Shown: positions 1-33,729 of the stretch, in pieces
How positions within the stretch are numbered: the first letter of the stretch is position 1
How the letters are laid out: each line of letters starts with the position of its first letter
Source: an uncultured Gemmatimonadales bacterium
Lineage (GTDB): Bacteria > Gemmatimonadota > Gemmatimonadetes > Gemmatimonadales > GWC2-71-9
Assembly (NCBI GenBank): GCA_963825055.1
Contig: CAWGSK010000011.1
Coordinates: 1 to 64,000 of the forward strand
Direction: 5' to 3'
DNA: 64,000 bases
The notes under the pieces: generated by a model
Databases searched by the model: none
What the model was told of the DNA's origin: nothing
What the model saw: the letters and a program-made list of their open reading frames with translations, nothing else
Position numbers and translations under genes: made by a program

Positions 1-275
1 TGGCGCTCTGGAGATTCCCTTGCGCCCAAACAAGCTGCCAGCATGGCTACAGGAGGCGGCGGGGCCGCGCCAGGTGCCATCAAGCTCCGGAACTCGCTGA
101 GGTCCGAAAATGGACATGACGGCTGGCGGGTCAGCCCCAGTGACGCACGGTGGGTGTACATTATTGCGGACGCGATCGACGGGGAGCGACTGCGAGAGTA
201 GTCAGCACCAGAAGGGCGCTGTCCCTCCCGTCGCACCTTACCTGGACTTACCCGATCGAGGGTGACGTGCCCGAG

Positions 276-2069
276 ATGGATCACCGGCTCGAAGTGGCCC
301 TGGCCGGCCACTATCGCGTGGAGCGGGAAGTCGGCCAGGGCGGCATGGCCACCGTCTACCTGGCCCGCGACCTCAAGCACGGCCGCAAGGTGGCCATCAA
401 GGTGCTGCGGCCCGACCTGGCGGCGGTGGTCGGCGCCGATCGGTTCGTGCGCGAAATCCGGACCATCGCCAACCTGCAGCACCCCCATATCCTCGGCCTG
501 ATCGATTCCGGCGAAGCGAACGGCACCGCGTACTACGTGATGCCCTTCGTCGGGGGCGAATCCCTGCGGGATCGCTTGCGCCGGGAACAACAGCTTCCCC
601 TCGCCGACGCCGTCCGGCTCGCCTCGGAGGTGGCGGCCGCGCTCGACTACGCCCACCGGCAGGGCGTGATCCACAGGGACATCAAGCCGGAAAATATCAT
701 GCTCCACGACGGGTCGGCGCTGGTGACCGACTTCGGTATCGCGCTCGCGCTCTCGACAACGGGCGACACCCGAATGACCGAGACCGGCATGTCGCTTGGC
801 ACCCCGCAGTACATGTCGCCCGAGCAGGCAATGGGCGAACGCACGATCACCGCCCGGAGCGATGTCTACGCCCTCGGCTGCGTGCTGTACGAGATGCTGC
901 TGGGAGAGCCGCCCTTTACCGGCCCCACCGCGCAGTCGATCTTCGCCAAGGTAATGACCGAAAAGCCGGTTCCGCCCCGCGTGCGGCGCGAGACCATTCC
1001 CGAACAGGTCGAGCGTGCCATCCTGACGGCGCTCCAGAAGCTCCCGGCGGACCGCTTCCAAAGCACCGCCGAGTTCAGCGCGGCACTGGCGCCCCAGTCC
1101 GTGGCCGTCGCTGCCCCTGCCCGCTCACCGGGCGGCGACCTGATCGCGGACTCGTTCCTCCTCAGCGAGGCAACCTGCCGCCGCCTCTCCCGGTCCGCGT
1201 TCGATCCCCGGCTGAACGGGACCGAGCTCCACTATCTGGACAACAGGGTGGCCTCCCCGGTGCTGCTGTGCCTGATGCCAGCCTGGGGCCGACGCTCGGA
1301 TCAGAACGTGGAGATGATGTCGCGCGTCCCCTACCGGACCGTTATCCCGACCTTCCGCGGATTCGAGGATGTGACACCCTGGCGGCCCAGCCTCGGCATC
1401 GAGGATCACATTGTGCTGGTCCGCGAGTTTCTACACGACCTGGCTGCGCGAGTCGACGCCCGCACGATCATCATCGCCGGCTTCTCGACGGGTGCTGACA
1501 TCGCGCTCCGCTTCGCGGCGATGCCGGATCCGGAGTCCCGCCTCCGAGTCGATGGTTGCCTGGCGCTGGGCGGCAACCTCGCGGAGAGCACATGCTTCTT
1601 CACCAGGGTGATGGCATCGCTTGGCGGCGACGGCGACGCCGACATGCTCGCCGCCATGCGGCAGATCAGCAACGCCGCCACGACGCTCGATGAATGGGTG
1701 AACACCTGCCAGTACGCGATCAGGATCGCCTCCATGTTTCGACACGAGGCGGACCCGGTTCGCACCTTTGCCGCCGGGATCACGGCGCCATTCGAACAAG
1801 AGGACTTGATCGCGTTCGCCAATTGGTACCGAGCCGCCACAGCCGCCGGATGCCGGCTGCGCTGTGTCTTTGAGGACACCCCCATGTACCGCGACCTCGT
1901 CCGTGAACTCCAGCTTCGCAATCTCGACGAGGGACTGCTGGGTGACAGGTACGAGGAGGGCTCCATCATCACCGAGGCTGGCACCGGGCACTTCGACCTG
2001 GCGGAGCCATCGCGGGTGGCACGGCATCTCGAGGCCCTCGTATCTCGACTTGGCACGGGATCGTCGTAG
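276..2069 (+). CDS. Hanks-type Ser/Thr protein kinase fused to a C-terminal alpha/beta-hydrolase-like domain
   Basis: GQGGMATVY, VAIK, HRDIKPEN, DFG and GTPQYMSPE kinase motifs. C-terminal half has GFSTG (GxSxG) and a terminal GTGH. Start taken as ATG 276 (MDHRL) within track ORF 150..2069. Confidence 0.9.
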   Translation: MDHRLEVALAGHYRVEREVGQGGMATVYLARDLKHGRKVAIKVLRPDLAAVVGADRFVREIRTIANLQHPHILGLIDSGEANGTAYYVMPFVGGESLRDRLRREQQLPLADAVRLASEVAAALDYAHRQGVIHRDIKPENIMLHDGSALVTDFGIALALSTTGDTRMTETGMSLGTPQYMSPEQAMGERTITARSDVYALGCVLYEMLLGEPPFTGPTAQSIFAKVMTEKPVPPRVRRETIPEQVERAILTALQKLPADRFQSTAEFSAALAPQSVAVAAPARSPGGDLIADSFLLSEATCRRLSRSAFDPRLNGTELHYLDNRVASPVLLCLMPAWGRRSDQNVEMMSRVPYRTVIPTFRGFEDVTPWRPSLGIEDHIVLVREFLHDLAARVDARTIIIAGFSTGADIALRFAAMPDPESRLRVDGCLALGGNLAESTCFFTRVMASLGGDGDADMLAAMRQISNAATTLDEWVNTCQYAIRIASMFRHEADPVRTFAAGITAPFEQEDLIAFANWYRAATAAGCRLRCVFEDTPMYRDLVRELQLRNLDEGLLGDRYEEGSIITEAGTGHFDLAEPSRVARHLEALVSRLGTGSS

Positions 2070-2070
2070 G

Positions 2071-2166
2071 TTCCCCACCTCCGAGGCGGTCAACGACGCC
2101 CTTCGTTCTCTAGCCTCCATCGCAAAGCGGACAGGCCGGGCCAAGTCCAAGACCCGAACGGCCAAA
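2071..2166 (+). pseudogene. 3' stub of a small putative antitoxin-like gene
   Basis: Reads FPTSEAVNDALRSLASIA, resembling the C-terminus of small antitoxin-like proteins (FPxSExVNxALR). No 5' part; runs into the first attC. Confidence 0.55.
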
Positions 2167-2300
2167 CAGGCGCTGAAAGCCGCCCAGCGCTGCGGCCCCA
2201 ACCTCCTTGCGGCGGGCTGGGGCCCGTGCATACTCAGCGGAAGTCAGACAATTCGCTGCGGGCGAGGAGTCGCTGGCAGCCTAAGCGCAGGACGTTAGGG
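2161..2300 (+). repeat. attC site, family A
   Basis: GCCAAAC...GTTAGGG ends; core GTGCATACTCAGCGGAAGTCAGACAATTCGCTGCGGGCGAGGAGTCGCTGGCAGCCTAAGCGC. Confidence 0.85.
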
Positions 2301-2324
2301 CGCCTTGACTGGAGCTGCCCATAG

Positions 2325-2744
2325 ATGCCACGGCCTCCCTGGACGGAGCGAGCTCTTGTCGGCGCCCTGGGAGGCGCCGCGCTCAGCCTGCTGCTCCTCG
2401 CCGTTGGCATCTTGCGGATAGCCGTGGTCCTTCTCGCTGGTATCCCCGTTCGCAACGGCTTGCCTGGAATCGGTGCCACGATTATCGGCGCAGGCGTCTA
2501 TTGCTTGGGGTTTATCATGGCTGGATTGCTAGTCGGATCCCTCTGGCCCTTGCGACGCCATCTGTTGGGGTCTCTCTGTCTGGGTTACCTGGCAGCGGCA
2601 ATCGTCACCACGGCCTGCTTGTGGTTGATCCGCCAATCTGATGGTCCCAGCGACCCGGACACCACCGTCCTAACGCTGATAATCGCCACTGTCCTCTTCG
2701 GTTCTGTGGCAGGTTGGCATATCTGGCGGTGGGATCGTCCATGA
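2325..2744 (+). CDS. hypothetical membrane protein (cassette gene)
   Basis: About 4 hydrophobic segments; GGAG upstream; directly after attC. Confidence 0.7.
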   Translation: MPRPPWTERALVGALGGAALSLLLLAVGILRIAVVLLAGIPVRNGLPGIGATIIGAGVYCLGFIMAGLLVGSLWPLRRHLLGSLCLGYLAAAIVTTACLWLIRQSDGPSDPDTTVLTLIIATVLFGSVAGWHIWRWDRP

Positions 2745-2775
2745 TGCTTCAGACTCGGCTTCGTGGGTCTCACAC

Positions 2776-3048
2776 ATGAAAGCTGCTGCTCTGGTGACAT
2801 TTGTGCTGTTAGGACTGATTGAGTTCTGGGTGGGCAAGCGGACATTCCGGTTCCTTCAGTATAAGGGCCCTAGCCGGATGCGAGCGAACAAAACGCTTAC
2901 CCACCTCGCGTTCGAGCATTATCTCCCCGAAGGTCAACGCTGGCTGGACGGGCTCCGCTTGGTCATGGTTCTATGGACCCTCTCGTTCTTTCCAGCGTGC
3001 TGGGTCCTGATCCTCGCAGCGCTTGCGCCGGCCTACATGCTGCTGTGA
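2776..3048 (+). CDS. small hypothetical membrane protein (cassette gene)
   Basis: Two hydrophobic segments; ends inside the left arm of the next attC. Confidence 0.55.
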   Translation: MKAAALVTFVLLGLIEFWVGKRTFRFLQYKGPSRMRANKTLTHLAFEHYLPEGQRWLDGLRLVMVLWTLSFFPACWVLILAALAPAYMLL

Positions 3049-3168
3049 AGCTGCTGTCTCCTGCCGACACGGCAGGCGGTGCCACCTCGGCCGTGCATGC
3101 CATAGGGAAGTCATTGATTTTACCCGCTGCGGCGGTTCGCGCCGCAGCTTAAGCGCAGGACGTTAGGC
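3031..3168 (+). repeat. attC site, family B
   Basis: Degenerate GCCTAC left box; GCCACCTCGGCCGTGCATGCCATAGGGAAGT core; GCAGCTTAAGCGCAGGACGTTAGGC right end. Confidence 0.8.
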
Positions 3169-3177
3169 AGCATACAC

Positions 3178-3903
3178 GTGCGCTATCGCGTGCTCACCGC
3201 CCTTAGCTTCGCAACGGCCGTCGTCTGCGCGGGTCAGCAGGCCACGGCCCAAGTCCCCACGCCAGGCAACGGATACCCGTTTGGAGGCTGGCAATGGGAC
3301 GGCCGGCCCCAGTTTACGCACGCCCTGGTCCTCGTTATCCAACAATCAACAGGTCGACTGAGGTACGCAGCGACCGTCTATGGCGGGCTTCCGACTTGCG
3401 GAAAGCCCCCCATCGCGGATAGCACGTTTCTTTCACGGGGAATAGACTTCCTGCGCGCCGTCGGCTGGAGCAGCCCATACCCGGGTCAGCAACGAGTGGC
3501 GCGCTACGCCATGGAGTTTGTGAGAGTTGACGCGTTTGGCGGAGATCCCTCTGCCTTCGTCATCTTCCACCAAGACGGAGGTCTCGTGTACGCAGGATCA
3601 CGCATGTGGATGGGGCATGGTGACCGCTATTATCCTAGCCTCAACATTGATCCCTGGGATCTCCAAATGACCGATAGCCTGGCACCACGGCTGCCCGAAT
3701 CGGTGCTGACCAGCCAGGCGTTGTCTCGACTCCCTGCAAACTCTGGCCCGTCGCTTGAATGTTGTTCACAGCCTCGCGACCAAGCCCTATTCACTCACGG
3801 CCTTCATGCACAACAAGGAAGGGCAGCCTCCGCTGCGCAGATGGAGATTCGGTTCTGCTTTTGGTTCACCGCGGAACCTGCCGCTAAAACGCATGCTGGC
3901 TAA
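3178..3903 (+). CDS. secreted hypothetical protein (cassette gene, possible 3' frameshift)
   Basis: Signal-peptide-like N-terminus; stop TAA lies within the GGCTAAC box of the next attC. Confidence 0.65.
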   Translation: MRYRVLTALSFATAVVCAGQQATAQVPTPGNGYPFGGWQWDGRPQFTHALVLVIQQSTGRLRYAATVYGGLPTCGKPPIADSTFLSRGIDFLRAVGWSSPYPGQQRVARYAMEFVRVDAFGGDPSAFVIFHQDGGLVYAGSRMWMGHGDRYYPSLNIDPWDLQMTDSLAPRLPESVLTSQALSRLPANSGPSLECCSQPRDQALFTHGLHAQQGRAASAAQMEIRFCFWFTAEPAAKTHAG

Positions 3904-4038
3904 CAAGCGCTTAAAGCCGCCCAGCGGCCCGGGCCTCGGCCTGCTTGCGGCGGGCGTCTGGCGGTGCATACTCAGAGGAAGTTGGGCAATTCGCTGCGGG
4001 CGAGGAGTCGCTGGCAGCTTAATCGCAGGACGTTAGAC
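3898..4038 (+). repeat. attC site, family A
   Basis: GGCTAAC-aagc-GCTTAAAGC ... GCTTAATCGC-aggac-GTTAGAC. Confidence 0.9.
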
Positions 4039-4057
4039 CGACAGGAGGCGAGTCAAC

Positions 4058-4576
4058 GTGCAGGTCCGGTATGCCTGTCTCCGCTTCAGCATGTTTCTGG
4101 CCCTCGCCACGCGTGTGCCTGTCCCATGCCAGGCACAGGGCCCGGCCCCATTTCTCGGCATTGCGGCAGGCCCCAGCTCCTATGATCTCGGCGGGACGGG
4201 CACAGCGCCCGTCCTGGCCCTGGGTGTCGGGATCCCACTAGCAGGTCCGCTTCTGATTGAGCCCGGCGTTACGCTGCTACGTTATAAACCGGCTTTGGGT
4301 ACTGAGATCAATCACATCTTTCCGGAAGTCAGCCTCCAAGGCCAGGCTCACCTCGGGCGCTACTATCCCTTCCTCGGGGTGGGAGGAGGCCGGAGCCTGA
4401 TCGCGACCGGGCCTCAACCCCGTCACAACGCATGGACTCTCCATGCTGCCGGAGGCCTGCGAGTAACCTTCTCCAGCGCTTGGGGGATGCAGGGAGAGCT
4501 AAGGGTGCGTGCCGTTGATCCATTCCATGGTACGACGGCGGATTTCACCCTGGGGGTCACCCGACGGCTTCGCTAA
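4058..4576 (+). CDS. outer-membrane beta-barrel-like protein (cassette gene)
   Basis: Signal peptide; alternating beta-strand pattern (YPFLGVGGG, AAGGLRV, DFTLGVTRR); AGGAGG RBS. Confidence 0.7.
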   Translation: MQVRYACLRFSMFLALATRVPVPCQAQGPAPFLGIAAGPSSYDLGGTGTAPVLALGVGIPLAGPLLIEPGVTLLRYKPALGTEINHIFPEVSLQGQAHLGRYYPFLGVGGGRSLIATGPQPRHNAWTLHAAGGLRVTFSSAWGMQGELRVRAVDPFHGTTADFTLGVTRRLR

Positions 4577-4582
4577 CCGTCG

Positions 4583-4723
4583 GTCTCACAAGCGCTCGAA
4601 GCCGCCGGCGCCTGCGGGCGCCGGGCAGGCGGTGCCACCTCGGCCGCCGAGCATGGCATAAGGAAGTTATTAATTGCATTTGCTGCGGGGTTCGCGCCGC
4701 AGCTTGAGCGCAGGACGTTCGGC
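4583..4723 (+). repeat. attC site, family B
   Basis: GTCTCAC-aagcGCTCGAAGC ... GCAGCTTGAGCGCAGGACGTTCGGC. Confidence 0.85.
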
Positions 4724-4754
4724 TGTGTGCCGAGGCCGACTTGGGGATCCATTT

Positions 4755-5123
4755 ATGCGACGTCTCTCTGCCTGCCTCCTTCTCCTTGCTGCACTCACCG
4801 CCTCCAGGCTGGTGGCCCAGACTGGGGGAAGGACTATTATGCGCGGCGGGAGTCTCCTTTGGACCGACCGTGGAATGGCACGACATTCTCAGGGCAAGGG
4901 CTTACTTATGCCACGTGGGGTAAAGATTCGGCGATCCCTGGCCCTCGACCTTGAGGCGTGGCTTTCCCACGTCGGGAAGACGGCCGCTATCTTCGACTGC
5001 TACCGCGGCGTGGCTCAGTACCCTATCTCGGACCTACCACGGTGCTGTCAGTCGAGCCGGTGGTCGAACTCCGAGAGGGACCTACCTCCTCGCACATGCG
5101 CTAGCACTTTGGCCCCACTCTGA
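4755..5123 (+). pseudogene. probable decayed secreted-protein cassette gene
   Basis: Clean signal peptide MRRLSACLLLLAALTASRLVAQ, then no convincing continuous frame up to the next attC. Confidence 0.4.
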
Positions 5124-5309
5124 ATTGGTTCCTGCAGCGCCAGGACGCTTCTCCTGCCCTAGGGTTTGGGGCGCGAGCAGGGATGACCTTCCGGATCGGA
5201 ACACATGTGCCTCTTCTGGTTTCACTAGATGGCTTCGGTTGGCTTCGCGCTGGTGATGATGCCCCGAGATGGATGATCCCGTGACCATGCTAGGGAAGGG
5301 TCTAGCGCT

Positions 5310-5475
5310 GTCTAACAAGTGCTTGAAGGCGTCCAGCGCCCCTGGCCTCGGTCTCCTTGCGGCAGCCCCCGGCGCCGACCTGCGTGCCATTTTGGCCGCC
5401 GTGCATGCCTTAAGGAGGTCGGTAATTTCATCCGCTGCGACACGTCGCTGGCAGCCTAAGCGCAGGGCGTTAGAC
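5310..5475 (+). repeat. attC site, chimeric family A/B
   Basis: GTCTAAC with a family-A left arm, then the family-B GGCCGCCGTGCATGCC core, ending GTTAGAC. 166 bp versus about 140 for the others. Confidence 0.8.
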
Positions 5476-5491
5476 CACACACGGAGGTCCC

Positions 5492-6421
5492 GTGCCAGAT
5501 CTGCTCGATCGATTCCGAGGCGCCCTCCTGGGCCTGGCAGTCGGCGACGCCATTGGAACGACCCTCGAGTTCGAACCCCGCGGCTCCTTTGAGCCCATCA
5601 CTGACATGGTCGGCGGTGGACCTTTCGGCCTGGCACCTGGACAGTGGACCGATGATACCTCGATGGCGCTCTGCCTGGCGGCGAGTCTGATCGACTGCAA
5701 CGGTTTCAATGCTCGCGACCAAATGGAGCGTTATTGCCGCTGGCGAGACGATGGATACATGAGCAGCACAGGCACATGCTTCGATATTGGTAATACGATT
5801 GCCTCCGCGCTGCGACGATACGAGGCGACGGGCAATCCCGTCGCGGGGAGCAGTGATCCCCGAAGCGCCGGTAACGGCTCTCTCATGCGGCTAGCGCCAG
5901 TGGTTCTCTTCTACTACCCGGATCGCGCCAGCATTACCCGCTACGCCGCTGACAGTTCCCGCACGACGCATGCTGCCGACGAGGCGGTAGAGGCCTGCCG
6001 GATATTTGCGCAACTCCTGGCATCAGCCCTCGATGGCCGGGACAAATCTTTCGTGCTCTCCGCTGCGGACGGCTCCGAAGTCTCAGAGCGGTTGGATGCA
6101 ATCACCTCCGTCGCCTACCGCGACTACACATCCCACCAGATTCGGGGAAGCGGGTACGTCGTTGATTCCCTGGAGGCGGCGCTGTGGTGCTTCCTCCGAG
6201 GTCGCACCTTTCGTGAGTCTGTGCTCATGGCAGCCAATCTTGGAGATGATGCCGACACCACCGCCGCGGTGTGTGGCCAACTCGCCGGCGCTTACCACGG
6301 CCTGTCAGGCATACCCACTTCATGGCTCGACACGCTGGCTCTACGCGATGACCTTATCACACTTGCAGGGCAACTACTCCGGACCGGAGATCGCCCTGCA
6401 GAGCCGTCGTCACCTCAGTAG
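5492..6421 (+). CDS. ADP-ribosylglycohydrolase family protein (DraG/ARH)
   Basis: GDAIG, WTDDT, GNGSLMR and GDDADT motifs; GGAGG RBS. Confidence 0.93.
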   Translation: MPDLLDRFRGALLGLAVGDAIGTTLEFEPRGSFEPITDMVGGGPFGLAPGQWTDDTSMALCLAASLIDCNGFNARDQMERYCRWRDDGYMSSTGTCFDIGNTIASALRRYEATGNPVAGSSDPRSAGNGSLMRLAPVVLFYYPDRASITRYAADSSRTTHAADEAVEACRIFAQLLASALDGRDKSFVLSAADGSEVSERLDAITSVAYRDYTSHQIRGSGYVVDSLEAALWCFLRGRTFRESVLMAANLGDDADTTAAVCGQLAGAYHGLSGIPTSWLDTLALRDDLITLAGQLLRTGDRPAEPSSPQ

Positions 6422-6469
6422 TTGCCGACTCACGAGGAGCGCCCGACTATTGATAGGTTGTTTCCTGCG

Positions 6470-6610
6470 CCCCAACAGGCGCTTGACGCCATCCGGCGCG
6501 CCAAGTCTTAGCCTCCTTGCGCCGGGTCCCTGGCGGTGCATACTCAAAGGAAGTCAGACAATTCGCTGCGGGCGGGTACTCGCTGGCAGCTTAAGCGCGG
6601 AACGTTTGGC
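6470..6610 (+). repeat. attC site, family A
   Basis: CCCCAAC...GTTTGGC with the conserved GTGCATACTC...GGAAGTCAGACAATTCGCTGCGGGC core. Confidence 0.87.
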
Positions 6611-6612
6611 AG

Positions 6613-7074
6613 ATGCAACCCTTCCCACAGCCTGTCGGGAGACGCCATGACCCCGGACAAGCGAAGGACCTGGTCGCCCGAATCGCCACGGATGTCTGGA
6701 ATCAAGGCGATGTGGCGGTTTGCGATGAGATCATGCACCCGGATGCGAGATATCACGGGCCACACATGCCGGGTGGAGAGGGAGATCGCGAGACCTGGAA
6801 ACGCGCCATTCAGATGTATCGAGCGGGATTCCCTGACTCTCGTGTAACCTTCAACGCGATGTACACAGCGGGGGACACGGTTGTTGGGCGGTGGATGGCG
6901 ACCGCCACCCACGAAGGTGCTCTCCCAGGCGTGGAGCCCACGGGCCGCCCAATCACCATCACCGGCATTACCATCTACGCCCTGCGCGACGGGAAGATCG
7001 CCGAGGCCTGGGAGGAGCTCGACCTACTGGGAATGTGGCGGCAGCTTGGCGTAGTTACGCTCCCGGAAGCCTAA
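6613..7074 (+). CDS. SnoaL-like ester cyclase (probable 1-bp indel near start)
   Basis: VWNQGD, AGFPD, THEG..PTGRPITITG..DGKIAEAW pattern. The RBS-associated ATG at 6647 is out of frame with the body. Confidence 0.85.
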   Translation: MQPFPQPVGRRHDPGQAKDLVARIATDVWNQGDVAVCDEIMHPDARYHGPHMPGGEGDRETWKRAIQMYRAGFPDSRVTFNAMYTAGDTVVGRWMATATHEGALPGVEPTGRPITITGITIYALRDGKIAEAWEELDLLGMWRQLGVVTLPEA

Positions 7075-7106
7075 CCGGGGCTGGCGCCCCGGTGGACATG
7101 GTATCT

Positions 7107-7245
7107 GCCTGACGTGCGCTTGAAGCTGTCGGCGCCTGCGGGCGCCGGCTGGCGGTGCTGACTCGGCCGCCGTGCATGCCATAAGGAAGCCGTAATTGTA
7201 TCCGCTCTGGCCGCTCGCTGGCAGCTTGAGCGCAGGACGTTAGCT
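7107..7245 (+). repeat. attC site, family B
   Basis: GCCTGAC-gtgcGCTTGAAGC ... GCAGCTTGAGCGCAGGACGTTAGCT. Confidence 0.88.
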
Positions 7246-7273
7246 GGCTTCCCACCCCCCGGGCCGCTCGGAC

Positions 7274-7303
7274 TTGTCTTGGTACATACACCGTACATAT
7301 ACT
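7274..7303 (+). promoter_or_regulatory. putative TA promoter/operator
   Basis: TTGTCT-N18-TATACT ending 6 bp before the brnT ATG, overlapped by direct repeats GTACATA at 7282 and 7293. Confidence 0.6.
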
Positions 7304-7309
7304 TGAATC

Positions 7310-7597
7310 ATGAGCGACCTCCGGATCGAATGGGATCCGCGGAAAGCCGCGGCCAACCGCCGCAAGCACGGCGTCTCGTTCGAGGAGGCGGCCACCGTCT
7401 TTGCCGATGAGGCCGCCCTGCTCATCGCGGATCCCGAGCACTCCGACCAGGAAGATCGGTTCGTGCTGCTGGGCCTCAGTGCCACGTTGCGGGTTCTGGT
7501 CGTGGTCCACTGCTATCGCGGAACCGAGGACGTCATCCGGCTTATCTCAGCCCGGAGGGCGACCCGCAGAGAACGCGGACACTACCCGGGAGGGTAA
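7310..7597 (+). CDS. brnT: BrnT family ribonuclease toxin
   Basis: EWDPRKAAANRRKHGVSFEEA, EDRFVLLG, IRLISARRA. Confidence 0.93.
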   Translation: MSDLRIEWDPRKAAANRRKHGVSFEEAATVFADEAALLIADPEHSDQEDRFVLLGLSATLRVLVVVHCYRGTEDVIRLISARRATRRERGHYPGG

Positions 7598-7601
7598 CGA
7601 T

Positions 7602-7832
7602 ATGAAACCAGAATACGATTTTTCCAAGGGAAAGAAGAATCCCTATGCCAAGCGGCTCAAGCGACCCGTCACCATCCGCCTGGATGAGCCCACCATTGCC
7701 TACTTCAAAGGACTGGCGGCGGAGACGGAGATCCCCTACCAGACGTTGATCAACCTGTATCTCAGGGATTGTGCGGCCTCCCAGAAGCGGCCAGCCCTCA
7801 AATGGCGAGGGCCGAAGGCCGGCGCCAGCTAA
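7602..7832 (+). CDS. brnA: BrnA family antitoxin
   Basis: MKPEYDFSKG..KRPVTIRLD..YFK..IPYQTLINLYLR; directly follows brnT; stop lies inside AGCTAAC. Confidence 0.9.
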   Translation: MKPEYDFSKGKKNPYAKRLKRPVTIRLDEPTIAYFKGLAAETEIPYQTLINLYLRDCAASQKRPALKWRGPKAGAS

Positions 7833-7966
7833 CAAGCCCTTAAGGCCGTCCGGCGCCCCTGGCCTCGGCCTCCTTGCGGCGAGCCCCTGCCGGTGCATAC
7901 TCAGTGGAAGTCGGACAATTCGCTGCGGGCAAGGAGTCGCCGCAGCTCAAGCGCAGGGCGTCAGGC
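7827..7966 (+). repeat. attC site, family A
   Basis: AGCTAAC...GTCAGGC with the conserved core. Confidence 0.88.
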
Positions 7967-7994
7967 GGCGGCCCCCCATCCGGTGAGGGTGAAC

Positions 7995-8327
7995 ATGGCA
8001 GAGATCAGGCAGTCCACCGCGTCGTTCGGCCTGGCCTTTGCCGCGCTGGCGACGGTGCTTCCCGTCTACGCACTCTTGCGCTGGTTTTGGGCGTGGCACC
8101 AGCCTCATGCGGACTTCCGCGACGCAGTGACGGTGTTTGACACCGGCTTCCCTTTCGGGCTGCGCGGATCGAGTATCACCTGGGCTTGCGTCGTCTCTGC
8201 CGCGGCGGGTGTGGTGGCAGCTGGCTTGATCGTACGACGTACTCGTGGTGCGACCCGTGCCGTTGCCTGCACGATCATGGTGAGCGCTGCGGCGCTGCTG
8301 ATGTGGAACTTGTGGACCATGATGTAG
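7995..8327 (+). CDS. hypothetical membrane protein (cassette gene)
   Basis: Three hydrophobic segments; GAGGG RBS. Confidence 0.65.
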   Translation: MAEIRQSTASFGLAFAALATVLPVYALLRWFWAWHQPHADFRDAVTVFDTGFPFGLRGSSITWACVVSAAAGVVAAGLIVRRTRGATRAVACTIMVSAAALLMWNLWTMM

Positions 8328-8348
8328 GACCTGGGGCAGTCGCACCTT

Positions 8349-8446
8349 GGCTGACATGGTTTTGAAGCTGCCACCGCGGCCGGGCGTTTTGCGCATTGCT
8401 CATGAGCCGGACTGGCGGCGGCGCAGTGTATAGCCATCCGTTGGGC
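8349..8446 (+). repeat. attC site, unrelated shorter family
   Basis: GGCTGAC-atggTTTTGAAGCTG ... GCAGTGTATAGCCATCC-GTTGGGC. Confidence 0.65.
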
Positions 8447-8714
8447 GGGACGTGATTCCACTCTACAAAGGGGTGGTTCTGAACCGGTTTCTGCGCTACC
8501 TGGCGCCTGACCACGCGGTGGGCCGTCGCGCCCATCGTCGAGTGCAATGTGGGCTCGGCGCCATCTCACGTGGCGCGCGAGAATCAGCGCGACACGAGGT
8601 GCGGAGAACCACACAAGAACGGCGGAGACACACGGATGCCCAAAGTGACACGATCATCGCCTTCCCCCCGCTCCTGATGTTCCAACGACCAGCTCGACGC
8701 TGCAACTAAGCGTC

Positions 8715-8843
8715 GTCTAACAGGCCTGGGCCACCAACATTCCGCGGATTCTGCGGCGGGCCCCAGCCGGTGCATACTCCGAGGAAGTCAGACAATTCGC
8801 TGCGCGCGAGGAGTCGCTCGCAGCATAATCAAGAACGTCGCCC
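8715..8843 (+). repeat. degenerate attC, family A
   Basis: GTCTAAC left box and conserved core; arms eroded. Confidence 0.7.
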
Positions 8844-9369
8844 GCACTGGCCAACTAAGGACGGCCCAATGCTTCCGCTGAATTAAGTCATCGGTGAGTC
8901 GTCCTTCGGCTACGCGGTTCGTACTTCAGCTTTTCCGAAGGATTCTCGCTCTATGTCGACTGTGAAGACCAGGAGAGGTCTTCGCCGAGACGAGGACTCG
9001 CGGTCTGCATTTGGCCGCTTACATCTGAGGAGCACGAGGCTGAGGAGCCAGACACCAACCGAGGGAACATAGCTCGTCAGCCGGGCACCCCATCGCATGC
9101 CGCTCACGCTGTCGGCCATCACCTGGACCAGATCGTCGCGAGGCGTTTCGTGGAGCGTTATCCGCGACAAGGACACCGAGGAGGGTGTGATGGAAGCGAT
9201 GAATGAACCCGGCCGACTATTCCCGCCCGGTGCACGGCTGGCAACGCTCACTCGCGGTGGGTTGAGCCTCATGCTCATGGCCAGCCTCACCCCGATGGGA
9301 AGCTCGGTGGCGGCCTGGTGTATCGAGAGCTCAAGCCGTAGGAGACGAAGCCGCGGGAGCCTCTACGGG

Positions 9370-9446
9370 CCGCCTGAGCCCGGCATCCGACACTGCTTTT
9401 ACCTGCTTCGAAGTCCACGCTGCAGCTTAAGCGCCAACAGTTCGGC
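9370..9446 (+). repeat. attC right arm (left arm eroded)
   Basis: GCAGCTTAAGCGCCAACA-GTTCGGC. Confidence 0.55.
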
Positions 9447-9522
9447 GGAGATCCATTGCGGCAAGTTCTTGCCCCGCATTGGCAACTGTCACGCGCTGAC
9501 TGCTGAATAAGGCCAAGGAAGA

Positions 9523-10453
9523 ATGAGTTATTCCTATTTCATCTGTGATGTTTTCAGCGAGAACTGGCACCTCGACAACCAGCTGCCGTGATTCCTACCA
9601 ATGACTATCCGAAAGCTGCTGGAGCAGGTTGCGCGGGATCAATTTCTCGGAAAGCGCTTTTGTACTACCTCCAGAGCATGGGCATAATCGCCGAGTCCGG
9701 ATCTTTACGCCGACTACCGAGGTGCCATTTGCCGCGCATCCGAATGTTGGTACCGCTTTCGTTTTGGCTACGATGGGGGCCTTCGGTACAGTCGACGGAC
9801 CGATGACTATCACATTCGAAGAGAAGGCCGGACTAGTCCCGATCACGATTCGTCAGCGGGGAGGAGTGCTCTGGTGCGAACTTTCTGCCCCTGAACCTCT
9901 ATCGCTTGGCAAGACGATTTCTGAGGACTTACTAGCATCGGCGGTATCACTGTCTGCCAGTGATATCGTTACCACAACGCATGTACCCCTGGTGGCTTCG
10001 GTTGGCCTGCCGTTGCTTATGGCGGAGCTCAAGGATCGTTCGGCGCTGGCACGAGCGCGGATTAACCTGCAGGGCTTTGATGCTATCGCTGCGCAAGGCA
10101 TTACACCCGATATCCACCTCTATACCAAGAGCAATGGCGAGTTCGATATCCGGGCCCGGATGTTTGCCCCGTTCGATGGGGTCCCGGAAGACCCCGCCAC
10201 CGGCAGCGCGAACTGTGCATTAGCAGGATTGCTGAGCTCCTACAGCGATGCTACAGACAGCGCCACATCATGGCGCGTAGCACAAGGCGTAGAAATGGGG
10301 CGTCCGAGTGTATTGGAAGCCCATGCACAGAATCAGGCCTATAGTGACGCTCCTCGATCGTGGACCGAGGCATTGGCGGTGCGGAAATCATTCTGGTTAC
10401 TTCGAAGCGGCCATGCACTAAGTGACGATAAGACTATCTCACTCACACAGTAA
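9523..10453 (+). pseudogene. PhzF family isomerase/epimerase, frameshifted at the 5' end
   Basis: SESAF, RIFTPTTEVPFAAHPNVG, EDPATGSA, QGVEMGRPS. The ATG 9523 frame (YFICDVF..NQL) breaks before joining the main frame, and the C-terminus looks altered. Confidence 0.8.
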
Positions 10454-10475
10454 GAGATCATCTCACCAAAGCGCC

Positions 10476-10617
10476 GCCTGACCCGCAAATGCAGATGCCG
10501 AACGGTCGGGAGTGTTTAGGTCCGAGTGGGCGCGGGTTTCCCTGAGCACGATATGGAACATCAGTCAGTGTGGGCGCGGGGCATGCCCGTCTGCAGCTGA
10601 GTTGTATTCCGTTAGGT
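10476..10617 (+). repeat. attC site, third family
   Basis: GCCTGAC-ccGCAAATGCAG ... CTGCAGCTGAGTTGTATTCC-GTTAGGT. Confidence 0.75.
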
Positions 10618-10671
10618 GGCGGCTCACAACTCACAATCAACGACTCCGGATATCGTGTTCATGCACCTCTT

Positions 10672-10813
10672 CAGAGACAGGCACTTGAAGCCGCCCCAGC
10701 GCCCGTGGCCTCGGCCTCCTTGCGGCGGGCCCCTGGCGGTGCATACTCAGGGGAAGTCAGACAATTCGCTGCGGGCGAGGAATCGCTGGCCGCCTAAGCG
10801 CAGGACGTTATGG
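10672..10813 (+). repeat. attC site, family A
   Basis: Degenerate left box; GCACTTGAAGC arm; conserved core; GTTATGG end. Confidence 0.85.
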
Positions 10814-10873
10814 TCGCAGCAGTGGAAAACGTCAGACGGCGGCTCACAACTCGCAATCACGACCCCGGATATC

Positions 10874-11410
10874 GTGTTCACGCACCTCTTCAGGGCTGTG
10901 GCTGCCCTCACGCTGCTTACCGGTTGCGGTCCGGGACTGGACCCACAACTCCAGCCTCCTCCTCGCGGTGAGGACTATCCGCTCTCTCTCGAGCAGCAGC
11001 GCACGCTAGTGGCTGTGGTGGAGACCATTGCCGGTAGCCTCAAGGACTCGACGACCGTGTGTCTCGAGCTCACAGCCGGCGGCAAACGTTACGATCCCCC
11101 TTCAAAGTTCATCCGGAACGTCACCGTCCTGAGCCGCGTCGTACCGCCTTACCAATGTCCACCAACCTATACGAGGATGGTCTGGTACGTCGACCCGGAT
11201 CATCCAAAGGACCGCCCCCACCGGCCCCCAGGTTACGTGGACCCATACATCCTCCGAGTTCCGGTCCCGCCTGATCAGACGGTGGATACCCTCACCACCC
11301 CGGTGGTAGTCTCGCAAGGCACGGTAGACATCCATTACAGTTGTTTCGTCGCTGTCCGGCAGGGCCCTGGCCCAGGCCGATGCAGCCAAACCGACTGGCG
11401 GGTACACTGA
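10874..11410 (+). CDS. hypothetical lipoprotein (cassette gene)
   Basis: Lipobox AALTLLTGC; Cys/Pro-rich body; bounded by complementary cassette boxes. Confidence 0.7.
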   Translation: MFTHLFRAVAALTLLTGCGPGLDPQLQPPPRGEDYPLSLEQQRTLVAVVETIAGSLKDSTTVCLELTAGGKRYDPPSKFIRNVTVLSRVVPPYQCPPTYTRMVWYVDPDHPKDRPHRPPGYVDPYILRVPVPPDQTVDTLTTPVVVSQGTVDIHYSCFVAVRQGPGPGRCSQTDWRVH

Positions 11411-11426
11411 GTGATTATGGGCCGCC

Positions 11427-11566
11427 GTCTAACAAGCGCTTGAAGCCGCCCAGCGCCCCCGGACTCGGCCTCCTTGCGGCGGGCCCCCGGCGGTGCATAC
11501 TCGGAGGAAGTCGGACAATTCGCTGCGGGCAAAGAGTGGCCGGCAGCTGAGCTCGGAACGTCAGGC
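11427..11566 (+). repeat. attC site, family A
   Basis: GTCTAAC-aagcGCTTGAAGC ... GTCAGGC. Confidence 0.88.
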
Positions 11567-11611
11567 ACTCCCACACCCGCCGAGCCATCGAGCACGGCAA
11601 AGGAGATCACC

Positions 11612-12100
11612 TTGCGCTGGAGCCGGAGCGTCACATTCATCATGGTGACCCTGTGGGTCACGCTCGCCGCATCGCCGGCACGCGCCCAGGCAGGCGCGCA
11701 CGTCGCGGACTCTGTCAAATACAGCGCCGTCCACCAACTGCTCGTTGTCCAGCACACCGATAGTCTCATGTTGTTGGGAGTGGAACAGGCCTTCGCCGAC
11801 CAGGCCCAGGATCCGGACCTGCCGGCGGGCTTTATGGACTCGCTACGAGTCCGCATTCGGCGAGACATCAACGTATTTCTCGAGCGCCTCGCGCCCGTGT
11901 ACGACTCCCTCTACACGCTGGAGGAGATCCAGCAATTCACGGCCTTCTACCTTTCGCCCCTGGGCCAGCGTTACATCGCCACACAGCCGGCCCTGACGGA
12001 GGCTATGGGCAACATTGCCAGGCAGTGGGGTATGGAGCTCACTGGCCAGCTCTTCGTTGAGATGTCACGGCAGCCGTCGCCCCGCACGCCCCGCCCGTAG
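11612..12100 (+). CDS. DUF2059-like secreted protein
   Basis: Signal peptide; YDSLYTLEEIQQFTAFYLSPLGQRY; AAGGAG before TTG. Confidence 0.75.
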   Translation: MRWSRSVTFIMVTLWVTLAASPARAQAGAHVADSVKYSAVHQLLVVQHTDSLMLLGVEQAFADQAQDPDLPAGFMDSLRVRIRRDINVFLERLAPVYDSLYTLEEIQQFTAFYLSPLGQRYIATQPALTEAMGNIARQWGMELTGQLFVEMSRQPSPRTPRP

Positions 12101-12113
12101 GAGCTGGTGCGGC

Positions 12114-12252
12114 GCCTGACAAGCGCGTAAGACCGCCAGCGCTCCAGGCCTCAGCCCCCTTGCGGAGTCCCGGAGCCGTGCGGACTCAGCGGACGTCAGA
12201 CAATTCGCTGCGGGCGAGGAGTCGCTGGCAGCTTAGGCGCGGAACGTTAGAT
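12114..12252 (+). repeat. attC site, family A
   Basis: GCCTGAC...GTTAGAT with a diverged conserved core. Confidence 0.85.
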
Positions 12253-12365
12253 GGCGCCCACGCACTCACGTCGGGTCAGATGAGACTACGTACCGCCGGA
12301 CCCGACAGCCCCGGCCGGTGTGAGCCGGGACTATCGGACAACCGACCGCGAGATCCATGTCTCTG

Positions 12366-12884
12366 TTACTGTCCCGAGCTCTCACCCAGGGCAATGAGAA
12401 GTTCGTCCAGCTGATCGAGCGTCTCGCTCATTGCATCGGCTGCTCCGGTGCCGGCAGCGTCGAGCGCTTCCTTCGAAGGATAGCTCTCGTGCAGAACCAC
12501 CAGCGTCTTGCCGCCCTTTTCCTCGAAGGTCACCGTGGTGACAGGCCCGCCCTCGCCACCTTCCTCATTGGTCCACGCGAGACGCGAATACGGCTTCACT
12601 TCGACATACGTGCCGAAAAACGCGGCTGGCTCGGGGCCACCGTGGTCGAATACCAATCGGTACTTGCCTCCGACGCGAGCATCCACCTCGCAGGACAGCA
12701 GGGTCATGCCCATCGACCTGGGCACCCACCAGCGCCTGAGCAGCTCGGCTCTGGTAAATGCCTCGAACACGATGCGGGCCGGGCCGTTGATGGTCCGCGT
12801 GACAACCACCTCGCGATCCGACTTCCGTTCCACCGTGGTGCGGTTCGTCACGGGGCCGGGCTCACTTTCGATTCCTGCGTTCAT
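12366..12884 (-). CDS. SRPBCC/AHSA1 family protein
   Basis: DREVVVTRTINGPARIVFEAFT..RRWW..DARVGGKYR. Confidence 0.9.
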   Translation of the reverse strand: MNAGIESEPGPVTNRTTVERKSDREVVVTRTINGPARIVFEAFTRAELLRRWWVPRSMGMTLLSCEVDARVGGKYRLVFDHGGPEPAAFFGTYVEVKPYSRLAWTNEEGGEGGPVTTVTFEEKGGKTLVVLHESYPSKEALDAAGTGAADAMSETLDQLDELLIALGESSGQ

Positions 12885-13227
12885 CGCTCTTCTCCTGTCG
12901 TGTGAGTTCCTCGACAACCTTGTCCAACGCGTCGAAGCGTTCGTCCCAGCGCTGGCGGTACTTCTCGAGCCAGGCCATCTCTTCCTCCAATCGACGCGGG
13001 CCCAGCTGGCACGTCCGCACGCGTCCGATCTTCTTCGTGGTGACGAGCCCCGCCCGCTCCAGAACGCCAACGTGCTTCTTCATGCCCGTGAGCGTCATCT
13101 GGAACTTCTCGGCCAGGTCCGTGATCGAAGCGTCGGCTCGTCCAAGCTGCTCCACAACGCCACGTCGCGTGGCGTCCGAGAGCGCGGAGAACGAGGTATC
13201 AAGCCGGGTCGTCATATACTGAACCAT
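12862..13227 (-). CDS. ArsR/SmtB family transcriptional regulator
   Basis: FSALSDATRR..ITDLA..MTLTGMKKHVGVLERAGLV..GRVRTC; overlaps the SRPBCC start. Confidence 0.9.
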   Translation of the reverse strand: MVQYMTTRLDTSFSALSDATRRGVVEQLGRADASITDLAEKFQMTLTGMKKHVGVLERAGLVTTKKIGRVRTCQLGPRRLEEEMAWLEKYRQRWDERFDALDKVVEELTRQEKSDERRNRK

Positions 13228-13239
13228 ATGGTTCAGTAT
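13216..13239. promoter_or_regulatory. 24-bp perfect palindrome, ArsR autoregulatory operator
   Basis: ATACTGAACCAT|ATGGTTCAGTAT overlapping the ArsR start codon. Confidence 0.8.
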
Positions 13240-13352
13240 TTTAGCGCAAACGCTCGCGGCACGCAAGGGGCCATCACTTCCCGCTCTGATGGGCTCAGTA
13301 TGCTCCGCCGGCGAGGTACCGGACGGGGCACGCGGGCGGGCTGCGGGTGGAT

Positions 13353-13448
13353 TTGCGGCAGGCCCACGTCGGTGCATACTCAGAGGAAGTCAGACAATTC
13401 GCTGCGGGCGGGAAGTCGCCGGGGCAGCATGAACCGAGGACGTGAGAC
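13353..13448 (+). repeat. partial attC, family A (left arm lost)
   Basis: TTGCGG..GTGCATACTCAGAGGAAGTCAGACAATTCGCTGCGGGC..GGACGTGAGAC. Confidence 0.75.
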
Positions 13449-13488
13449 CGCGGACGCAACATCCCTGCGCAAAGGACAGGTAGAGCAC

Positions 13489-14019
13489 ATGGCCAGGCTC
13501 GTATTCGGAATGAATCAGTCCCTGGACGGGTACGTCGACCATACGGCGTTCGGTCCCAGCCCAACGCTGTTTCGCCACTTCATCAAGGAAGCGCAGGGAC
13601 AGGCGGGCAGTGTGTACGGCCGCCAGATGTATGAGATCATGCGTTACTGGGACGACGACCACCCTGAATGGAATGCGGAGGAACGCGCCTTCGCGGCGGC
13701 GTGGCGCAACCAACCGAAATGGGTCGTCTCGCGCTCGTTGAAGGCGGTCGGCCCCAATGCCACACTTGTTGTGGAAGATCTTGAGGGCGCGATCCGCGAG
13801 ATAAAGGCCCAACGCGACGGCGAGATCGAAGTTGCCGGCCCAGACCTGGCGCACAGCTTAACCGACCTTGGCCTGATCGATGAATATCGCATCTACCTGC
13901 ATCCCGTCGTCCTTGGTCACGGCACGCCATATTTCGCGGGACCCCGGCCGCCGCTCCGCCTTGCCGCCAGTGACCGGATTGACGAGGATGTGATCCGCTT
14001 GACGTATGTCCCTGCCTGA
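13489..14019 (+). CDS. dihydrofolate reductase (RibD C-terminal) family protein
   Basis: MNQSLDGYV, YGRQMYE, PKWVVSRSL, LIDEYRIYLHPVVLGHGTPYF. Confidence 0.9.
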   Translation: MARLVFGMNQSLDGYVDHTAFGPSPTLFRHFIKEAQGQAGSVYGRQMYEIMRYWDDDHPEWNAEERAFAAAWRNQPKWVVSRSLKAVGPNATLVVEDLEGAIREIKAQRDGEIEVAGPDLAHSLTDLGLIDEYRIYLHPVVLGHGTPYFAGPRPPLRLAASDRIDEDVIRLTYVPA

Positions 14020-14079
14020 TGTCGCGACTCCGGGAACGTCATTACCGCAGAGGTAGGGTCACTGCCAGGCCCGGCTGCG

Positions 14080-14290
14080 GCCTGACAACGGGTTGCAGGC
14101 CTCCAGGCCCCAACTGGCTGGTGTCAGCGCGGCCGCCGTGCATGCCAAGGCGTCGGTGGGGTGTTCCTGCCTGGATAGCCCCAGTCCCACCGCGGTAAAT
14201 CGTTGAGGGGTTGTCGTTTATCGAACCAGCAGGTCCGGTGACCGGCCCACCCTGATAAGCGCCTGCGGCCGCCCAGCGCCCCCAGCCTCA
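14080..14290 (+). repeat. two attC left-arm remnants (family B at 14080-14150, family A at about 14250-14290)
   Basis: GCCTGAC..GGCCGCCGTGCATGCCA and CCTGATAAGCGCCTGCGGCCGCCCAGCGCCCC. Confidence 0.55.
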
Positions 14291-14320
14291 GTGCCGGATT
14301 CCCAGGGTTCGACCAGCGAG

Positions 14321-14728: not shown

Positions 14729-14801
14729 TTCGAGTCATTCCCCCTGGCGTGGTTCCCTGCGGCGTCAGCGCGACGCTCCGATTGTGCCATTCCATGACCC
14801 A

Positions 14802-14828
14802 GACGCTTGAGGTCATGAACATGTGACA
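14802..14828 (-). promoter_or_regulatory. ECF41-type promoter
   Basis: Minus strand TGTCACA-N16-CGTC. Confidence 0.7.
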
Positions 14829-27723: not shown

Positions 27724-28329
27724 ATGACCTTGCTTGATTCCTGGATGCCGGTGTATGACGTGAGCGCCAGGTACTCCCTGCCGATTGCAGCCTCACAAGG
27801 CCAGGTCTACCATGCACTCCTCCAGTCCGACTTCAGTCGCCCGTTCCTCGTGCGGTCCCTGATGGGACTGCGACTCCTTCCCGGCCTGCTTCGCTCACCC
27901 AAAGCCACCTGGCGGCGACTCTCCCGCGCAGACCGCCCGACCCGGGCGTCCCTCCAGGACTTCGATCGATCCGACTTCGTTCGGCTTGAAGAGGCCGCGC
28001 CCCGGGAGATTGTTCTCGGGATTACGGGGCGCTTCTGGACGCTCTCCGCCCAGGTCACGGCCATCCCGCCGGATCGCTTCCGGGACCCGCTGCCCCCGGG
28101 CCTGGCCCAGGCAGCCTGGAACTTTGAGGTTGCGCCCACCCCCGGGGGTTCCTCGCTGGCCACGGAAACCCGCGTCCGATGCGCGGACCGGCAAACACTT
28201 CGGCAGTTCCGCCGCTATTGGTGGCTGGTCGCGCCGGGGAGCGGCCTGATCCGGCACGCCATCCTGCGTCAGGTTCGACAGGAAGCGATGATCAGCGTCG
28301 AAGGCCGGCGCCCGCGAACAGGCGCGTGA
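27724..28329 (+). CDS. hypothetical protein (DUF2867-like)
   Basis: EIVLGITGRFW, AAWNF, TETRVRC, FRRYW..GSGLIR. Confidence 0.7.
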   Translation: MTLLDSWMPVYDVSARYSLPIAASQGQVYHALLQSDFSRPFLVRSLMGLRLLPGLLRSPKATWRRLSRADRPTRASLQDFDRSDFVRLEEAAPREIVLGITGRFWTLSAQVTAIPPDRFRDPLPPGLAQAAWNFEVAPTPGGSSLATETRVRCADRQTLRQFRRYWWLVAPGSGLIRHAILRQVRQEAMISVEGRRPRTGA

Positions 28330-28403
28330 GGCCGCCCGGCATCTCCGGCCTCGACTCTTTGCAGTGGGCTCCTGACGGTGCATACTCCGTGAACGTCGGG
28401 CAA
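28313..28403 (+). repeat. attC family A remnant (right arm lost)
   Basis: CGCGAACAGGCGCGTGAGGCCGCCC..TTGCAG..GGTGCATACTC..GTCGGGCAA. Confidence 0.7.
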
Positions 28404-28498
28404 GCCTCGACGGGCCGCGGGGCGCTGGTGGCACAGGCGGACCGAAGCGTTCAGCGGCCGCACCGTGCAGGTGATGGTCACCCCGGAGGAGGCTTCCA

Positions 28499-33640: not shown

Positions 33641-33729
33641 CACGCGCCAGGAGCTGCATTCGGCTGGGCGTACCAGGCTATCCGGGCACAGCCCGAAGCG
33701 GATTGCAGCTCAAGCGCAAACCGCTGGCC
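33635..33729 (+). repeat. attC-like site
   Basis: GACTGAC overlaps the stop; GCGCCAGGAGCTGCA pairs with TGCAGCTCAAGCGC; ends GCTGGCC. Confidence 0.65.

Follow-up and report, generated by a model that had tools for sequence, protein, structure and literature searches.

What are the repeats that separate the small genes at the left end of contig CAWGSK010000011.1 of an uncultured Gemmatimonadales bacterium (assembly GCA_963825055.1), and what purpose, if any, do their long centres serve? The window analysed in this study comprises the first 64,000 nucleotides of this contig (C11:1-64000), and the source assembly has 3.53 Mb in 35 contigs, with 87% completeness and 6% contamination. A preliminary description, made from the sequence alone, had proposed an integron-type cassette array with no integrase in view, in which palindromes of two main families of about 140 bp separate short co-oriented open reading frames (ORFs). 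In the present study, the palindromes were confirmed where they had been placed; 18 attC-like elements lie between 2161 and 14290, every one on the + strand, and families A and B measure 139-142 bp and are related to each other in the centre. An opening and a closing box, which had been claimed for each element, were found in 13 two-armed sites and are incomplete in four elements with one arm lost or wrecked and in one left half. The two-armed sites comprise seven of family A, two of family B, an A/B hybrid at 5310-5475 and three singletons at 8349, 10476 and 14080, and the four incomplete elements begin at 3046, 8715, ~9400 and ~13340. On these data the window is very probably an inner segment, now in decay, of a sedentary chromosomal integron of Gemmatimonadales with co-directional layout. 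Moreover, we lean, with little more than even confidence, to the joint reading in which the attC centres of this segment would double as expression modules on the sense strand. The preliminary description was thus right about the array, and it overlooked the decay of the sites, the continuation to the left, the upstream co-directional intI of the lineage and the putative expression signals in the attC centres.

The identity of the repeats was examined with 41 attC sites from other genomes, which were aligned and used to make a covariance model from relatives only. In these 41 sites 96% of the arm cells are paired and 18 of 25 pairs show compensatory change, a level that none of 500 shuffles reached, the covariation being partly there by construction because the sites came from a pairing-based detector. 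The AAC/GTT triplets are invariant in the relatives' sites, and R''/R' boxes with these triplets occur in the 13 two-armed window sites, several of the triplets being mutated. The alignment contains an L''/L' stem with unpaired columns 125 and 132, so that the extrahelical bases are 6 bp apart, and the window sites have the same register. A covariance-model search had been named as the test of the attC assignment, and the relatives-only model matched 12 window sites (19-54 bits, E 5e-12 to 1e-2), on the bottom strand throughout, together with the outlying site at 33635; the site at 14080 gave no match to it. Genome-wide, 18 matches at E<=0.1 were confined to contigs C11, C8 and C5 (150 of 8246 candidates scored). 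The free-energy z-scores of the whole window sites, from -1.6 to +2.9, were uninformative. Of the two singletons proposed earlier, the one at 10476 holds, with 26.9 bits, and the one at 8349 is only marginal.

BLAST copies outside the array were found at C11:28314, on C8 (three) and on C5 (one) and nowhere else in the assembly, and C8 carries four more sites of other types. The copies therefore form three islands, with one orientation inside each, and not a repeat scattered in both orientations. That the element is a repetitive extragenic palindrome, a miniature inverted-repeat transposable element or another non-integron repeat is extremely improbable: an assembly without integrase and many poorly folding copies would suit it, yet it is contradicted by the arm covariation and the model matches, sites of the same geometry adjoin intI in relatives, and Rfam gave no match at E<=1 in positions 1-20000 of the window. 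Furthermore, a search of 150 genomes of the family returned no full-length match to family A, which is thus lineage-specific, as had been supposed. Of seven genome-collection matches to the right-arm pattern, one is an uncultured Gemmatimonadales record holding a family-A site, the only other one found, and two metagenome pattern scans returned no matches. This record and the best plasmid-collection match to a relative's IntI, which is in Gemmatirosa, uphold the earlier placement of the DNA in Gemmatimonadota.

These sites read as AAC, 8 nt and an unpaired G, followed by 11 nt and GTT, which gives spacers of 5 and 8 nt and C as the extrahelical base of the bottom strand. The usual attC has a 5-6 nt spacer in each arm and an extrahelical G (PMC5027507), from which the window sites depart; spacers up to 10 nt are allowed (PMC7370490), and an extrahelical C is rare but functional (PMC3053210). 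An attC detector assuming 5/6 spacers found zero window sites. The 5/8 geometry with extrahelical C is present in 536 of 602 sites from 65 genomes, a pattern-biased sample in which most loci were gathered by a pattern requiring the 8/11 register. In a set gathered mainly beside intI, 92 of 105 sites have this geometry (52 of them from one genome), and in a free-spacer search all but four among the matches listed have it by eye. Of 401 genomes of the family, 149 contain the right-arm motif, and the reversed controls were near zero. The tallies of IntI in 40 relatives, of the right-arm motif and of the free-spacer search include unpublished genomes (G014; G083, G202 and G253; and G202 and G458, respectively), on which no sequence analysis draws. 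Gemmatimonadota has been listed as an integron-bearing phylum (PMC8618304), and in the available text of Ghaly 2021 none of the 11 taxon models covers it (PMC8352920).

Between 5 and 11 of the 12 L-stem pairs, and between 3 and 7 of the 7 R pairs, are still present in the window sites. The bottom-strand hairpin expected of them was recovered in part: the probability of the stem, P(stem), is 0.87, 0.62, 0.31 and 0.30 in four of the 13 two-armed sites and below 0.1 in the other nine, in which the recombinogenic stem is mostly not formed. In comparison, all seven sites on C8 and C5 have 11-12 L pairs and a P(stem) of 0.54-0.98, and 351 relatives' sites, selected by the detector, average 11.6 pairs and 0.88. 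In the array of one relative (G020), 52 of 56 places were detected as intact sites. Low folding alone is no proof of decay, because working Vibrio arrays also contain poorly folding sites (PMC5371416). Mutated triplets, lost arms and broken cassettes agree with the low folding, and the window sites are decayed. Judged from their arms, most of them are probably locked for recombination.

No IntI or remnant of it was found in the 87%-complete assembly with TIGR02249, tblastn and a profile of 18 relatives' IntI, which extends the earlier remark from the window to the whole assembly and supports an array without integrase in view; the intI, attI and cassette promoter (Pc) of a complete sedentary chromosomal integron are not in the source assembly. 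It encodes XerD and a phage-type tyrosine integrase in two frames (contig C13, L002:1402-2545). Among relatives, IntI scored above the cut-off in 22 of 40, and attC was detected nearby in 12 of 20 IntI genomes, always downstream of and co-directional with intI and upstream in none. By eye, many relatives have attI-like GTTAG sites after the stop of intI; their IntI align normally to VchIntIA over 2-312, and a search by eye for special features found nothing unusual. Since intI is upstream and co-directional in all 12 relatives, that of the window would lie left of position 1.

The first bases of contigs C11 and C8 are already within arrays, and a site lies close to the end of C5. In run X1, one contig connects window position 1 (side 44) with the end of an attC, and other contigs of this run lead from an attC end to an attC start through sequence absent from the window stretch; run X1 is from one study, possibly of the source sample, and its joints at 90% likeness may stem from other organisms. 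Judged by these joints, the array extends left past the contig edge, and the kinase gene at 150-2069 is probably inside it. As the array continues past this edge, loss of intI is indistinguishable from an assembly gap, and an integrase lying in such a gap stands at near even odds. The array has 62% GC against 66-69% for the contigs. Homogeneous lineage-specific attC sites, co-oriented cassettes of low GC and a toxin-antitoxin cassette, the marks of a sedentary chromosomal integron, are all present. The co-orientation described earlier holds generally, the ArsR/AHSA1 pair at 12366-13227 being on the opposite strand.

The incomplete assembly, the contigs beginning or ending in arrays, the run X1 joints through outside sequence, the intact sites of C8 and C5 and the poorly folding sites of working Vibrio arrays (PMC5371416) could also be accommodated by a still-active superintegron, with intI and most cassettes in an assembly gap and window sites that still recombine. 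We consider it improbable, as an integrase in a gap would not repair the window sites, whose AAC/GTT mismatches, lost arms and broken cassettes contrast with the largely intact array of G020. In that near-complete genome (L044, L070, L071), a 38-kb array with 52 intact attC lies immediately 3' of intI and can serve as a reference for integrons of this type. Plasmid 1 of Gemmatirosa kalamazoonensis (L275:20001-39813) bears a co-directional integron that is complete and has at least 28 attC, homogeneous and of 8/G/9 register.

According to the standard model, a cassette distant from Pc is not expressed, and the sequence of attC centres has no conserved function. IntI recombines the folded bottom strand of attC with crossover at G/TT, and hence the TAG of each core site comes from the next cassette. 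In the joint reading, the cassettes would have been inserted by IntI acting on bottom-strand hairpins with 5/8-nt spacers and an extrahelical C, and the long attC centre may be an expression module on the sense strand. Some families would carry a sigma70 promoter, many a Shine-Dalgarno (SD) sequence with a start codon, and a few a -10 box with GTG at +1; a leader of 13-28 codons would cross the right arm and terminate at the TAG in the core site of the following cassette. In this way each cassette could supply transcription, or ribosome cover of its own hairpin, to a downstream neighbour far from Pc, and in the window the arms would have eroded and the family-A promoter been retained, possibly driving downstream genes.

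A two-box promoter model was trained on 1045 upstream regions of the source genome, integron regions excluded, and returned TTG(C/A)C-N, 17 nt and TA-N-(C/A)-TT. In six of seven two-armed A copies the best site is TTGCG(G/C)-16-CATACT on the sense strand (9.6-9.9 bits). Mismatches among the seven A copies number 3/84 in the hexamers, 19/112 in the spacer and 46/294 in the arms (p about 0.003); the family-A promoter hexamers are better conserved than the recombination arms. The motif is retained in three remnants that have lost an arm, and the 12114 copy, after which reverse-strand genes come next, has lost it. From this pattern we infer that the family-A remnants may persist as promoters. When the -10 was restricted to the centre, the score for 76 groups of relatives' sites was 7.5 bits on the top strand, 4.2 on the bottom strand and 6.25 with a wrong spacer, and the top-strand score exceeded the wrong-spacer score in 53 groups. 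Family B yielded no promoter site by the host-trained model, and in a generic scan (9-of-12 rule) family A fell below the threshold and was missed. The L' box as a -10 element was rejected, as 32 groups showed no spacing peak, and a dif/Xer-like B centre misfits in spacing by eye.

Both the anti-SD and the SD spacing of the host are canonical. A strong SD with a start was found 215 times on the top strand and 23 times on the bottom strand of the first 365 sites. ATG with a strong SD was distributed over the three frames as 11.2/0.8/0.8, against about 3-4 per frame in shuffles, so that the TAG frame is enriched and the other two are depleted; stops downstream of the purine box were distributed as 3.1/10.1/18.3. 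In a held-out set of 16 clusters unlinked to the first set, the ATG frames were 7.0/1.7/1.4. Among 77 single-linkage groups, ATG with a strong SD was in the frame of the core-site TAG in 15 of 16 cases and any ATG in 26 of 39, and the bottom strand of the same groups had no frame bias. An open in-frame leader is present in 249 of 602 sites, compared with 119 and 94 in the other frames. In addition, 62 sites have a -10 box 17 nt after an arm-encoded -35 and GTG or ATG 7 nt on, in frame in 54, and in 17% of 431 strong promoters of the source genome the -10 box is followed by a start codon at 5-8 nt, which suggests that leaderless translation is common there. A Marinimicrobia attC (L064:3003-3127; 9/C/11, 11-nt right side) has an SD, an ATG and a 23-codon frame to the core TAG, suggesting that the leader feature may not be confined to one phylum. 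The 28 Gemmatirosa sites, of 8/9 register, have no such box by inspection and make this species a cultured contrast. In the window, AAGGAAG at 7183 and TTG at 7196 of site B3 open a 15-codon frame whose stop is the core-site TAG (7241), and the leader frame of B2 continues into the next ORF because its core reads TCG and not TAG.

An ordinary decaying CALIN (cluster of attC sites lacking integron integrase) or split integron, whose centre motifs descend from a few ancestral attC and have no expression role, could account for part of these data: the decay is plain, start-to-end lengths cluster at few values (47 and 86 nt), indels are not frame-preserving, the leaderless layout derives from 3 groups only, and conservation in family A covers the whole downstream centre (23/294 mismatches), beyond the hexamers. 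We judge it rather unlikely, since in-frame ATGs occupy 19 of 33 distinct distances, the frame bias recurs in families unlinked to the first set, and the TAG frame departs from the shuffles as given above. Alternatively, the centre could be an AT-rich purine/pyrimidine patch for DNA folding or host-factor binding, such as a melting point for hairpin extrusion. An unpaired AT-rich patch does lie inside a site of about 67% GC, and unpaired attC regions influence strand choice (PMC5027507), but such a patch predicts neither the codon-frame bias to TAG nor the 16-18-nt spacing and is distinctly improbable.

Several results weigh against an expression role. The family-A promoter is middling: 44% of host upstream regions, and 9% of convergent controls, score at least 9.6 bits. 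Its hexamers were first spotted by eye. Within-family indels downstream of the start are multiples of 3 in only 6 of 39 (upstream 8 of 36), TTG has no frame bias and GTG a weak one, and the well-sampled genomes G405 and G174 do not favour the TAG frame. A TAG-anchored leader frame irrespective of register was unsupported (4 of 11 off-register sites). The leader of the window itself is weak, with only ATT in family A and TTG in frame in three of eight B-like sites, and p-values are overstated because groups share ancestry. The idea that cassettes lack their own SD was rejected (55% have one, against 49% of host genes), and cassette genes start a median of 31 nt after the TAG; both argue against simple termination-reinitiation and make ribosome cover of the hairpin the likelier role.

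Extended from the window to the whole family, the proposal is more tentative, and we place it somewhat short of an even chance: attC sites of the family may be dual-purpose, with a recombination hairpin on the bottom strand and a promoter and/or an SD-led or leaderless leader on the top strand, so that large arrays could be expressed over their whole length without Pc and sites could be domesticated as promoters after loss of recombination. The longer right spacer would then keep the L' box open in the leader frame; leader presence against an open L' codon gave Fisher p=0.07. As a decayed array the window is ordinary, and its value is that the arms eroded while the promoter-like centre stayed; the new part is the probable presence of built-in expression signals within attC sites. 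The known exceptions to silent distal cassettes are single cassettes. If true, a lineage-wide set of promoter- or leader-bearing attC would explain the expression of large arrays and offer a route from dead recombination sites to regulatory DNA.

Two further features of leaders and centres were observed. Where the right arm of relatives' attC contains CAGCTGATG (e.g. G365, G405 and G384), the L' box reads TGATG, in which a leader-frame stop overlaps an ATG whose frame continues into the next cassette; the palindrome may force this arrangement. Most B sites (e.g. 4654-4666) contain a three-codon minigene of ATG, a variable codon and a stop that overlaps the AAGGAAG box, the end codons being kept.

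Short ORFs of integrons are the nearest precedent. Hanau-Bercot 2002 and Jacquier 2009 reportedly dealt with ORF-11 of attI1 and short ORFs in attC, and a short attC ORF is said to relieve a hairpin block. ORF-11 is short, preceded by an SD and terminated by the TAG that the core site of the incoming cassette supplies (PMC8876359), and short ORFs in attC have been called anecdotal (PMC11511950). Those cases concern one attI or few mobile cassettes, whereas here such ORFs appear in many chromosomal attC families, with an SD or a putative promoter of their own, and for most cassettes reinitiation seems improbable. The ORF-11-like SD and start in the TAG frame is found statistically in relatives and is weak in the window's own families. 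The proposed transcription independent of Pc in large arrays would also be shared with a single sigma70 promoter that spans an attC junction in Vibrio DAT722 (Michael and Labbate 2010, PMC2945992) and with the gene-less promoter cassettes of Blanco et al. (bioRxiv 2023.11.21.568050). In the cases these sources describe, promoters are in 5' UTRs, gene-less cassettes or one junction, whereas here the candidate promoter is within the repeat in nearly every family copy. In the open-access literature, supplements aside, no report of a lineage-wide attC expression module or of Gemmatimonadota attC structure was found.

With CALINs (Cury et al. 2016, PMC4889954) the window shares clustered attC (at least two) without a neighbouring intI in the assembly and cassettes mostly of unknown function. 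It is visibly decayed and larger than most, CALINs with more than 10 sites being 6.6% (PMC4889954), and the contig edge is on the expected intI side, so that CALIN status is provisional. Treponema-type inverted-integrase integrons (PMC3607928) share with the relatives an intI pointing toward the array, a layout seen here in Gemmatirosa and in all 12 of the 12 relatives in which attC could be detected, and decayed arrays without intI occur there too, e.g. the T. phagedenis remnant (PMC3607928). However, the phylum differs, the window has no visible intI or attI, and the likeness is one of layout. Vibrio superintegron repeats (VCR) and canonical attC (PMC5027507, PMC3053210, PMC5371416) share long homogeneous sites, R/L boxes, a toxin-antitoxin cassette with its own promoter and two extrahelical bases 6 bp apart; the window differs in its 5/8-nt spacers (usual 5-6), C for G at bottom-strand base 16 and several families per array.

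Table 1. Features of the window, numbered from its first nucleotide.
Feature	Position	Strand	Evidence or remark
Ser/Thr kinase gene	150..2069	+	Pfam Pkinase
3' remnant of small gene, presumably antitoxin-like	2071..2165	+	reading frame; overlapping ORF without Pfam match
attC A1, decayed	2161..2300	+	L pairs 9/12, R 5/7, P(stem) 0.04; 30.6 bits
sigma70-like promoter TTGCGG-16-CATACT in A1	2207..2234	+	9.6 bits, host-trained model
same promoter-like motif	3945, 6517, 7874, 8751, 10720, 11474, 13353, 28359	+	
cassette, two small ORFs (139 and 90 aa), no family	2325..3048	+	
attC B1, R'' box lost	3046..3168	+	24.4 bits
cassette ORF, 241 aa, no family	3178..3903	+	
attC A2	3898..4038	+	L 10/12, R 6/7, P(stem) 0.05; 54.2 bits
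cassette ORF, 172 aa, no family	4058..4576	+	
attC B2	4583..4723	+	49.1 bits; AAGGAAG at 4660, TTG at 4674 in core-site frame
cassette ORF in two frames, probably pseudogene	4755..5256	+	
hybrid attC, A left half and B right half, 166 bp	5310..5475	+	44.6 bits
ADP-ribosylglycohydrolase cassette	5492..6421	+	DraG/Tri1-like, under both cut-offs
attC A3	6470..6610	+	
SnoaL-like cassette	6613..7074	+	Pfam
attC B3, best-folding window site	7107..7245	+	P(stem) 0.87
BrnT/BrnA toxin-antitoxin cassette	7274..7832	+	own promoter-like site at 7274-7303
attC A4, decayed	7827..7966	+	
cassette ORF, 110 aa, no family	7995..8327	+	
singleton attC-like site, marginal	8349..8446	+	9.1 bits, E 1.5; L 8/12
family-A remnant, most of left arm gone	8715..8843	+	promoter-like centre retained
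lone attC right arm	~9400..9446	+	
PhzF-family cassette, 5' end broken	9523..10453	+	Pfam
singleton attC	10476..10617	+	same 8/G/11 register; 26.9 bits
attC A6, R'' decayed	10672..10813	+	
cassette ORF, ~180 aa, no family	10871..11410	+	
attC A7	11427..11566	+	right arm with 1-nt deletion
DUF2059 cassette	11612..12100	+	Pfam
attC A8	12114..12252	+	promoter-like centre lost; reverse-strand genes next
ArsR-type regulator and AHSA1-family gene	12366..13227	-	Pfam
family-A remnant, left arm gone	~13340..13448	+	promoter-like centre retained; upstream of RibD_C gene (13489-14019)
wrecked B-like site	14080..~14208	+	no model match
left half-site, dense array ends	14249..14290	+	
outlying family-A remnant	28310..28450	+	promoter-like centre retained
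outlying decayed attC	33635..33729	+	23.1 bits

Apart from the ADP-ribosylglycohydrolase, SnoaL, BrnT/BrnA, broken PhzF and DUF2059 cassettes, seven ORFs of the array have no Pfam family. A search for homologues of 10 cassette ORFs in the retrieved loci and the source genome gave one weak match only, to the DUF2059 ORF. The cassette that follows 10813 has its initial ~60 bp (10830-10893) duplicated at 10610-10674, between the 10476 and 10672 sites, where the duplicate forms a gene-less mini-cassette. To the right of the array, 14300-34400 is occupied by accessory genes (epimerases, extracytoplasmic function sigma factor, SnoaL, cupin, GH97 and a low-GC ArsP permease), with an A-like promoter motif at 18676 and isolated attC remnants at 28310 and 33635, and this region possibly consists of older domesticated cassettes.

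The other two islands were also inspected. At the start of C8 (L005:95-8045) lie six intact attC, which fall into four types and are interspersed with DUF4440, DUF6946, an erythromycin-esterase-family gene and a glyoxalase; two of these attC belong to an 8/G/12 register family absent from the window. On C5 (L006:2-1783), a patatin-like phospholipase and a nucleotidyltransferase lie directly 3' of an intact B-type attC, ~1.2 kb from tRNA-Pro; the pair is the NCBIfam DS2 anti-phage pair above the cut-off and is CBASS-like by PADLOC.

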